From the NCBI RefSeq assembly GCF_051903065.1, contig NZ_CP178438.1: a stretch of 64,000 nucleotides of DNA; one strand, 5' to 3'. This document shows positions 24,501 to 27,500 of this stretch, one piece after another. Source of the DNA: Escherichia coli (GTDB taxonomy: Bacteria; Pseudomonadota; Gammaproteobacteria; Enterobacterales; Enterobacteriaceae). The position numbers were made by a program. Position 1 is the stretch's first letter. Every line of letters begins with the position of its first letter.

Positions 24501-27500
24501 TGAAGAATTAGTCCCGGCGGATGCGCCGCTGTGGCGAACAATCAATACGCCACAGGGTAAAGGCGTTGTTAACTTAGGGGCGAGAGATATCAGGGTTTAC
24601 AGCGACGGTGATTTTCCACACTGGACAGGGTGGAAACTGGTGAACGATGATGCGGACACCAACAGCCAGTGCAATTCACCAACAATCCTGTGTACAACCC
24701 GCAATGACCTAAGTCGGATGATTTGTCATTTTCCGCTAGAATGGGACAGCACCACCGTGGAATCACGGTTTGAGTGGCTGAAATCACCCAATGACGTATT
24801 GAGTAAGCCGATGACAGAGCCTGACTTGGATTTGCTGATAGAACACTGTAAGGCGCTTTGTTTGGTAGATAATCCGTTACCTGCCAGGCGTGTATGGCAT
24901 TTTGATCCCAGGCAGTTTATTGCACATTTCAGGAAATGTGGGTGGTTAGGAGAAAATGATATTATAAGTGTGGTAAGACGTTATCAAAATGCTTATCCCA
25001 TGACATCAGAACTTACAAGACCATTAAGTAAAGACACTCTAATTGAGCGGATTACTAGCCAAGGACAAAATAGCAGTGGTGAGGTGATAAGACCTGCAGG
25101 GTTGAAAAATGAACTGTCAAAGTCACTAAGGAAGTACTTAATTACAACCCCATTGCGGATTGCGCATTATTTCGGTCAGATGGCGAGAGAAACAGGCAGA
25201 TTTGCGTCTTTTATAGAGAATGGTGATTCGAGTTATTTTGATATGTATGAGCCAGGAACAGAACAGGGACTTAAGCTTGGAAATAATGTTGTTGGTGATG
25301 GTGCAAGATTTAAAGGCAGAGGTACCATACATCTAACTGGTCGTGAGAATTATAGAAATTATAGAAATTATGGAAAGTATAGAAATCCGTCAGATGATGA
25401 TTTTTTTACTACAGAACCCAATAACCAACTCCCAGTTGAAAATGCCTATTTTTCTTGCGATGCCGGGGGATACTTTTGGGCAAGTAAGCAAAAATACATA
25501 ATGGTAAGCCATCGATTGACACCTAGTGGTAGTTTAGGCGTTAATTATTGGGCGGATAAAGGATGTAGTTTGTCAGATGCCAGAGAAGTTACACGGCGAA
25601 TAAACCCAGCAGCAGATGGCTTCGATTTAGTGCGTTGGCCAGCATTTGAGCATTCTTGGTATGTATTGAATGATGAAATAACACCTCCACTTAATTACAT
25701 AAGGATTGTTTAAAACAATGAATTTTAAAAAAACAATAATCATTTCGGTAGGTTTGATATTTATTTCATTCTCTTTTGTGGCAAAGTGCTCTCAACTCAA
25801 AAATTTGAATAATTACTCAGTGATGCTTTGTGGAAAAGTGTCAAATAATATCCTGGATGATATTGGTGGTTATAAAGAAAGAGATAAAAAATCCGAAATG
25901 GTAGATTTACTTATATTAATTAGTAATGACGAGCCTAACGGTGTTTCTGAGACCAAAGTGATTTCTAATGGTAAAATATATTTTAAGGGGGAAAGTACGA
26001 TGAACTTGGATGCCTCATTCATTATGACAATAAATGGTGGAGTTCATACTGACACTGTCACTTATATATCAAAGAAGAATAAAATTATCGGGGGCTACTT
26101 TTATAATAATGAGAGTAAAACTGATAAGCTTAAGGAAGTATATATCTCAAACACAGGAACTGTATATCGGTAATGACTCCAACTTATTGATAGTGTTTTA
26201 TGTTCAGATAATGCCCGATGACTTTGTCATGCAGCTCCACCGATTTTGAGAACGACAGCGACTTCCGTCCCAGCCGTGCCAGGTGCTGCCTCAGATTCAG
26301 GTTATGCCGCTCAATTCGCTGCGTATATCGCTTGCTGATTACGTGCAGCTTTCCCTTCAGGCGGGATTCATACAGCGGCCAGCCATCCGTCATCCATATC
26401 ACCACGTCAAAGGGTGACAGCAGGCTCATAAGACGCCCCAGCGTCGCCATAGTGCGTTCACCGAATACGTGCGCAACAACCGTCTTCCGGAGCCTGTCAT
26501 ACGCGTAAAACAGCCAGCGCTGGCGCGATTTAGCCCCGACATAGCCCCACTGTTCGTCCATTTCCGCGCAGACGATGACGTCACTGCCCGGCTGTATGCG
26601 CGAGGTTACCGACTGCGGCCTGAGTTTTTTAAGTGACGTAAAATCGTGTTGAGGCCAACGCCCATAATGCGGGCTGTTGCCCGGCATCCAACGCCATTCA
26701 TGGCCATATCAATGATTTTCTGGTGCGTACCGGGTTGAGAAGCGGTGTAAGTGAACTGCAGTTGCCATGTTTTACGGCAGTGAGAGCAGAGATAGCGCTG
26801 ATGTCCGGCGGTGCTTTTGCCGTTACGCACCACCCCGTCAGTAGCTGAACAGGAGGGACAGCTGATAGAAACAGAAGCCACTGGAGCACCTCAAAAACAC
26901 CATCATACACTAAATCAGTAAGTTGGCAGCATCACCCATATTAGGAATCTGGGAAAGAACAAGGTGCGCCGCTTTTTTTGTACTAAATAATTCGCATTTT
27001 AGTCACGGCAGAGAAGAAATCCGTCTTCATATTGTTTGCGATGTTCCTGATGAACTTATTGATTTCACGTTTGAATGGAAAGGGCTGAAGAAATTATGCG
27101 TGGCAGTCTCCTTTCGGTCCATAATAGCAGAACAAAAGAAAGAGCCAGAAATGACGGTCAGATATTATATCAGTTCTGCTGATTTAACCGCAGAGAAGTT
27201 CGCCACAGCAATCCGAAACCACTGGCACGTGGAGAATAAGCTGCACTGGCGTCTGGACGTGGTAATGAATGAAGACGACTGCAAAATAAGAAGAGGAAAT
27301 GCAGCAGAATTATTTTCAGGGATACGGCACATTGCTATTAATATTTTGACGAATGATAAGGTATTCAAGGCAGGGTTAAGACGTAAGATGCGAAAAGCAG
27401 CCATGGACAGAAACTACCTGGCGTCAGTCCTTGCGGGGAGAAGGCTTTCGTAATCTTGCCCTGGCATTATTGTCGTAAAAACGCATTACCGGACACACGA

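Follow-up and report, generated by a model that had tools for sequence, protein, structure and literature searches.

Does the small open reading frame (ORF) behind a type VI secretion system (T6SS) effector of Escherichia coli encode the immunity protein of that effector, and has the insertion sequence IS1 that ends it put the gene out of action? The question is raised by a stretch of 64,000 nucleotides from contig NZ_CP178438.1 (assembly GCF_051903065.1), referred to here as the window. The window covers the E. coli chromosome around yncG-pptA-yddH-nhoA, which is the position of the RhsE/H-repeat island in K-12. A PAAR gene, vgrG, the effector ORF, and the small ORF lie between yncG and pptA (Table 1). 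The genome of 23CRST027 is 99.988% identical to the window across 50 kb and was used as a sister genome. Taken as a whole, the locus is probably best explained by a cognate periplasmic immunity gene that was disabled by an IS1-linked deletion.

The small ORF is tightly coupled to the effector. The effector stop codon TAA (25711-25713) and the ATG of the small ORF (25718-25720) are separated by a 4-nt spacer (AACA), and AAGGA precedes the start. An earlier note on this DNA had placed the ATG 4 nt past the effector stop, and this was read directly from the sequence. The span given in that note, 25711-26173, has the correct end; its start is the effector stop codon, and the ORF itself occupies 25718-26173. 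The last sense codon, CGG (26168-26170), consists of one native C and two IS1 bases, and the stop codon TAA (26171-26173) lies entirely within the inverted repeat of IS1. The right inverted repeat begins with GGTAATGACTCC..., and the left one ends with ...GGCAGCATCACC. The claim that the last codon and the stop were created at the IS1 junction was thus confirmed base for base.

The intact allele (WP_001009642.1) encodes 167 amino acids and has the C-terminus ...NTGTVYHINIESVSNDKCLDKFK; the product of the window ends with ...NTGTVYR*. The gene of strain A30 is 100% identical to that of the window over bases 1-451, and then continues for 53 further bases (504-nt gene). Seventeen native residues (His151-Lys167) are replaced by one Arg. 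Homologues were found in Pseudocitrobacter (88% identity), Salmonella (72% identity), and more distant taxa, and the full-length members all have 167-184 residues. Homologues without the IS1 extend 17 residues beyond the junction and do not end at the same residue, so that the native C-terminus has been replaced, as had been supposed. Among 5,426 complete E. coli genomes, the 504-nt full gene is present in 17 and the same IS1 junction in two, 23CRST027 and 23CRST031 (Ecuador). The DNA search found a single copy of the immunity gene per genome. The exact 167-residue protein occurs on 719 contigs, and 147 have a close variant. With 7 contigs for the 151-residue form versus at least 866 for the intact forms, the truncated allele is rare.

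The identical junction in two independently assembled complete genomes, and the occurrence of the 151-residue protein on 7 contigs from several submitters, make it extremely improbable that the ORF is a chance product or that IS1 was mis-joined to a gene that is actually intact. IS1 is a typical source of misassembly and is heavily repeated in this IS1-rich lineage (at least 39 places in 23CRST027), but both flanks are perfectly collinear with strain ECNB21-M121 to the exact IS1 ends. The ORF also belongs to a conserved family with a confident predicted fold.

The comparison with ECNB21-M121 shows what happened at the junction. This strain has no IS1 at the locus and is identical to the window beside the IS1, over 469/469 nt on the left and 3,064/3,064 nt on the right; in its genome, 6,019 bp separate the two flanks. 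This segment comprises the final 53 nt of the immunity gene, one copy of ISAs1, a second PAAR gene, fragments of vgrG and C39, a gene for an M35 peptidase, and two hypothetical ORFs. No target-site duplication was found at the IS1 of the window (left flank, CTGTATATC; right flank, CATATTAGG), and the repeat search across its ends found no direct repeat. Because the flanks are 6,019 bp apart in ECNB21-M121 and the window has no target duplication, the alignment indicates that IS1 took the place of the 6,019-bp segment; this is an IS1-associated deletion, not a plain insertion. The missing target duplication, together with a right flank that comes from a different (M35) module, led to the rejection of a simple IS1 insertion. 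The description of the gene as clipped by IS1 therefore holds for the loss of gene sequence at the junction, but not for a mere insertion. Either adjacent deletion or recombination between two IS1 copies may have been the mechanism. Both are textbook routes to a single IS1 with intact ends and no 9-bp duplication. A single IS1 event removed the tail of the immunity gene together with an entire second effector module, and the locus is a base-exact natural case of insertion sequences eroding T6SS effector-immunity islands.

Some further observations concern this IS1. A common junction with strains like VG1046-3E9, which have an IS1 beside ydcC and thus close to the same ISAs1, was considered and rejected; the junctions differ, which points to independent insertions. 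RefSeq marks the IS1 transposase (26169-26936) as 'frameshifted'; the A6C programmed-frameshift site is nevertheless present. Over the stretch that was compared by eye, this IS1 differs by one base from an annotated functional IS1A.

The function of the small ORF was approached through its genomic linkage. WHIX is a T6SS loading domain, the 'chitinase-like' or GH19 type is the commonest C-terminal toxin of WHIX effectors, and signal-peptide immunity genes typically lie beside such effectors (PMC12135965, Fridman et al., PLoS Biol 2025). The upstream effector has a WHIX-type N-terminal part and a GH19-like toxin domain, as described below. The family of the small ORF is narrow, with 9 word-index matches and 22 representatives among 1.8 billion proteins. 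A family member stands next to this toxin-domain subtype in 6/6 further loci (L011, L012 orphan, L017, L018, L019, and L020), which represent five distinct arrangements in several genera. The two genes are on the same strand with gaps of 2-13 nt (Salmonella L019/L020, L011, and L017/L018). In Salmonella L019 and L020, the toxin domain is 87% identical to that of the window (the reference for all identities given here) and is followed, after a 2-nt gap, by a family member with 72% identity. In the orphan effector fragment of L012, the toxin domain and the following family member share 81% and 48% identity, respectively. The toxin domains of L011 and L017/L018 are both 58% identical, and the next gene is a family member with 25% and 27% identity, respectively. 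Two effectors with the same WHIX part, L012_690 and L009_729, have toxin domains with 29% and 24% identity, respectively, and each is followed by an unrelated ORF. The partner therefore tracks the toxin domain and not the delivery domain, being swapped where the toxin domain is only 24-29% identical. It also diverges faster than the toxin domain. Faster divergence of the partner is usual among effector-immunity pairs.

As a family member follows this toxin subtype in all six further loci, the small ORF is most likely the cognate immunity gene of the upstream effector. The family is unnamed and annotated as 'hypothetical', and would be a new member of a well-known kind of system. The earlier proposal of a putative immunity gene beside a periplasm-acting effector is plausible in view of this linkage. 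It would be very unlikely that the ORF instead encodes a second small toxin or some other exported accessory protein, for example a periplasmic or surface protein with no part in toxin neutralisation. That alternative could draw on the lack of homology to any named immunity family and on a fold search that returned only generic β-barrels; it does not fit the constant position of the gene directly 3' of this toxin subtype in Escherichia, Salmonella, and other taxa. The linkage holds even for the orphan pair of toxin fragment and ORF, and the gene is swapped when the toxin domain differs. The rapid divergence resembles that of immunity proteins, the export signal would bring the protein to the periplasm, where a peptidoglycan hydrolase acts, and signal-peptide immunity genes are the usual neighbours of WHIX effectors, as cited above. 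The cognate immunity assignment would give a likely role to an unnamed 'hypothetical' family, as partner of T6SS muramidase effectors that are common in E. coli and Salmonella.

Several of the compared loci have features of their own. The L012 region (CP110080.1, 2316-6507) has a classic polymorphic-toxin layout. The full effector and its unrelated 167-residue partner come first, followed by an orphan 344-residue effector fragment (78% identical to the effector of the window, residues 353-695), a 168-residue family member, and a 68-residue N-terminal effector stub. In Salmonella enterica L019 (2826-5507) and L020 (3071-5507), the effector is either split (214 + 487 residues) or cut N-terminally by a DDE_3 transposase gene; the 168-residue partner is intact and an ISAs1-type transposase follows. 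The Salmonella decay pattern, with the effector broken and the partner intact, is opposite to that of the window. Several giant proteins (P0013, P0026, P0027, and P0028; 1,000-2,540 residues) match the family profile at positions ~66-120 in 3-13 repeated stretches, so that a repeat of large proteins may be akin to the central β-hairpin region of the family.

The N-terminus of the small protein consists of MNFKK and 17 hydrophobic residues. A positively charged n-region and an h-region are kept in 15/15 aligned members, and several family members have classic AxA-type sites (...LHA|SEK or ...SYA|KEN). Cleavage is predicted near Ala22. By these features the segment is classed as a Sec-type signal peptide, and the compartment would match that of a periplasmic toxin. 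The signal peptide had been described as lipoprotein-like; the signal peptide is retained here, but the lipoprotein assignment is not. The supposed lipobox (F-V-A-K-C24) has Lys at position -1, and the PROSITE pattern PS51257 fails in this protein and in 14/15 family members. The C24 column contains Cys in 6/15 members, and the Salmonella orthologue with 72% identity has ...SFSAESYQ.... A lipoprotein, i.e. a substrate of signal peptidase II, was therefore rejected on the basis of the Lys at -1 and the non-conserved Cys.

The effector has the RefSeq product name 'M23 family metallopeptidase'. The Pfam M23 match is marginal (residues 44-157, E=3.3e-4), and the zinc-ligand motifs are degenerate, with HGGVH for HxxxD (His for Asp) and FHFQ for HxH (Gln for the second His). 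The founding WHIX effector is WP_005373349.1 (Vibrio alginolyticus), and its sequence was transcribed from the structure file of the paper (residues 1-452). The effector matches it by BLASTP (E=4e-8) and by HHalign (probability 95.2% over residues 32-130). In the alignment, WHGGVH and WHSGIH occupy the same residue numbers (41-46), and YYSLYMHL pairs with FYTLYMHL. For WHIX region 2 (founder residues 271-476), weak BLASTP fragments were obtained, and HHalign gave no match with a 4-sequence profile and a reference that extends only to residue 452. The degenerate zinc ligands and the WHIX region 1 match at the same place speak against an M23 (LytM-type) metallopeptidase; the label probably misnames the WHIX loading domain (window 23632-24100, residues ~32-157).

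Effector residues ~497-690 match the GH19-type endolysin 9ms7 (PWe2) with E=6.7e-9, and also 9hqw and 4ok7 (PDB). Both catalytic Glu residues, about 9 residues apart, and the GRG..(Q/H)LTG..NY signature align (maRETgrfasfiENg and fKGRGtIhLTGReNY). No match to PF00182 of Pfam was found in the effector. The effector can be read as a subclass I WHIX T6SS effector with a C-terminal GH19-like muramidase (residues ~490-695). The possibility of a subclass II (two-bladed) WHIX effector, whose N-terminal M23 toxin would need a second immunity gene upstream, was also considered. It was rejected on two grounds: the supposed M23 region coincides with the WHIX motif region, at the residue numbers of a subclass I founder, and the 145 nt between vgrG and the effector contain no ORF. 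PAAR and VgrG are encoded directly upstream, and the T6SS-1 cluster of 23CRST027 is located at aspV/yafT. The effector ORF is intact; compared with the A30 allele, it has T374A and a 9-bp tandem duplication. This duplication lies directly after the GH19 LTGRENY motif and was found in 3/19 complete E. coli genomes with the effector (this clone and ECNB21-M121). ECNB21-M121 carries the duplication together with an intact immunity gene. In the sections of the PMC12135965 supplements that were searched, neither accessions nor peptide strings of this pair occur, and a preprint on the T6SS of Shiga toxin-producing E. coli (10.1101/2024.03.05.583533) contains nothing on this effector.

What would be lost with residues 151-167? 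The alignment of 15 members, with identities down to ~20%, has only four invariant columns (Cys38, Ile143, Gly147, and Cys162), and Phe166 is nearly invariant. Among the lost residues, H151, E155, S156, D160, K161, C162, L163, D164, K165, F166, and K167 are invariant in the close homologues. The AlphaFold2 prediction with 5 close homologues was unusable, with a pLDDT (predicted local distance difference test) of 49; the addition of distant members gave a pLDDT of 84.8. The model is a small 8-stranded β-barrel with a C-terminal helix, in which residues 151-167 form a strand (153-155) and a helix (160-164). The N-terminal helix (residues 3-17) is of low confidence and detached from the fold. Truncation takes away Cys162, the terminal helix, and half of the last strand. 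The presence of two invariant cysteines in a protein that is exported points to a Cys38-Cys162 disulfide, which would tie the C-terminus to strand 1.

The 151-residue product is thus rather likely to be unstable or inactive. It is unlikely that this product still protects, so that the last 17 residues are dispensable and a working effector-immunity pair is kept. Such protection would agree with an intact effector ORF, with an unaltered signal peptide and translational coupling, with 90% of the protein left in place, and with the retention of the confidently predicted core strands (33-143). Few parts of the family, however, are as conserved as the lost segment, which holds one of the four invariant columns and completes the last strand of the barrel. 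No full-length family member ends early, and the truncated allele is restricted to 7 contigs. As an experiment of nature, this allele could show which part of the immunity protein is required.

A damaged immunity gene beside an intact effector raises the question of the state of the secretion machine. T6SS-1 of 23CRST027, at yafT, has a stop at codon 694 of 1,175 in tssM, a frameshifted main vgrG, and an IS903B beside tssB. The tssM genes of 23CRST027 (L015, 24954-28481) and ECNB21-M121 (L023, 1080-4547) differ by one base in 3,468 nt, which changes CAG to TAG at codon 694. Among the complete genomes, only the two IS1-truncated ones match that tssM stretch at 100%. T6SS-1 in this clone thus looks very recently disabled. 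T6SS degeneration via tssM point mutations is documented in E. coli O157:H7 (PMC12981562). With a private nonsense mutation in tssM of the sister genome, the weapon would no longer fire, which probably explains why a damaged immunity gene is tolerated. The order of events may be either of two: the weapon was lost first, which made immunity dispensable, or immunity was lost first, which selected for disarmament. A more far-reaching account can be offered only tentatively and is somewhat unlikely as a whole. Loss of immunity would have led to killing by sister cells and to selection of the tssM Gln694 stop, and the protein would found a new disulfide-stapled β-barrel immunity family for GH19-type WHIX effectors. 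If true, this would be a natural and recent case of 'disarm after losing the shield'. The clone is unusual in having an intact effector, a damaged immunity gene, and a newly inactivated secretion machine, and it lends itself to asking whether disarmament is forced by the loss of immunity.

The following mechanism can be proposed. PAAR-VgrG would carry the WHIX-class effector, and its GH19-like domain would cut the periplasmic peptidoglycan of the target cell. The 167-residue partner would be translated right after the effector and exported by its Sec signal peptide. It would then fold as an 8-stranded β-barrel with a C-terminal helix, probably pinned by Cys38-Cys162, and block the toxin domain. 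The IS1-associated deletion would have swapped the 6,019 bp, from immunity codon 151 through the ISAs1 and the second PAAR-vgrG'-M35 module, for IS1. The product without His151-Lys167 most likely could not close the barrel, and would be unstable or inactive.

Several points weigh against this explanation. The protein matches no Pfam, NCBIfam, or PADLOC model, and thus belongs to no known immunity family by homology. The structure search yielded generic β-barrels with no specific structural relative. Conservation is the sole basis of the proposed disulfide, and residues 151-167 may be dispensable for toxin binding. The state of tssM is that of the sister genome 23CRST027, from which it is extended to the strain of the window. 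The orphan copies in E. coli were examined for selection for immunity; none was shown, and most of them are frameshifted.

These orphan copies were found in 14 of the complete E. coli genomes, where the gene lies behind a different (M35) effector module. The last ~230 nt of the effector and the small gene are retained (L007, 6001-6741; FDAARGOS_144 type). In 13/14 copies, there is a 1-nt deletion in an A-run at codons 4-6; PM06121 is without this deletion, as the alignment length suggests. In addition, 119 genomes, including Nissle 1917 and ATCC 25922, retain only a 163-nt remnant (L008, 6001-6407; Nissle 1917 type).

The features of the locus are listed in Table 1. The vgrG is 93-95% identical to the vgrG of other modules (A10 and FDAARGOS_144) over window 20500-23400, where the similarity ends. 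This end is ~80 nt before the vgrG stop (window ~23400, codon ~690). The C-terminal tail of VgrG appears to travel as a single cassette with the effector and its partner, which fits reports of WHIX effectors loading onto the VgrG C-terminus.

Table 1. Features between the spike genes and the right flank of IS1 (window positions)
Feature	Position	Strand	Basis or remark
PAAR spike-tip gene, 94 aa	21031..21315	+	ORF; RefSeq WP_001127493.1 'type VI secretion system PAAR protein' in 23CRST027
VgrG spike gene, 715 aa	21334..23481	+	3' end from ~23400 specific to this effector module
T6SS cargo effector, 693 aa from ATG (695 aa from TTG 23626)	23632..25713	+	WHIX-type N-terminal part, GH19-like C-terminal part
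In-frame 9-bp tandem duplication, AATTATAGA x2, adds Asn-Tyr-Arg	25348..25365	+	Comparison with A30 and AHM8C212RI
Truncated putative immunity gene, 151 aa (150 native residues + Arg)	25718..26173	+	RefSeq WP_104773314.1 'hypothetical protein'; native sequence up to 26168
Predicted Sec signal peptide of the putative immunity protein, aa 1-22, MNFKKTIIISVGLIFISFSFVA	25718..25783	+	Alignment with family members
IS1 (IS1A-like), 768 bp, insA/insB'	26169..26936	-	Both ends complete
Right flank of IS1	26937..27452	+	Sequence trailing an M35-type effector module in other strains
5'-truncated ISAs1 (H-repeat) transposase remnant	26991-27452	+	Within the right flank

In comparison with known systems, the locus shares several features with the WHIX class (PMC12135965), including the position of WHxxxH, homology in region 1, adjoining PAAR/VgrG genes, a GH19-type C-terminus, and the gene of a small signal-peptide protein next to the effector. 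The immunity families named in that study (DUF1311/LprI and DUF3828/Tai3) differ from the present one. The PliC/MliC periplasmic lysozyme inhibitors and the Tgi/Tsi3-type immunity proteins against T6SS glycoside hydrolases can also be named among the closest known systems. The rearrangement resembles IS1-mediated adjacent deletions and the decay of T6SS loci by insertion sequences in E. coli and Shigella, as here too one complete IS1 joins sequences between which the closest relative has another 6 kb. These results do not change the general understanding of T6SS immunity; they describe ordinary decay driven by insertion sequences in a weapon island of a rare clone. In E. coli O157:H7 (PMC12981562), the effector is broken and the immunity gene is kept, whereas the window shows the reverse, a damaged immunity gene beside an intact effector.

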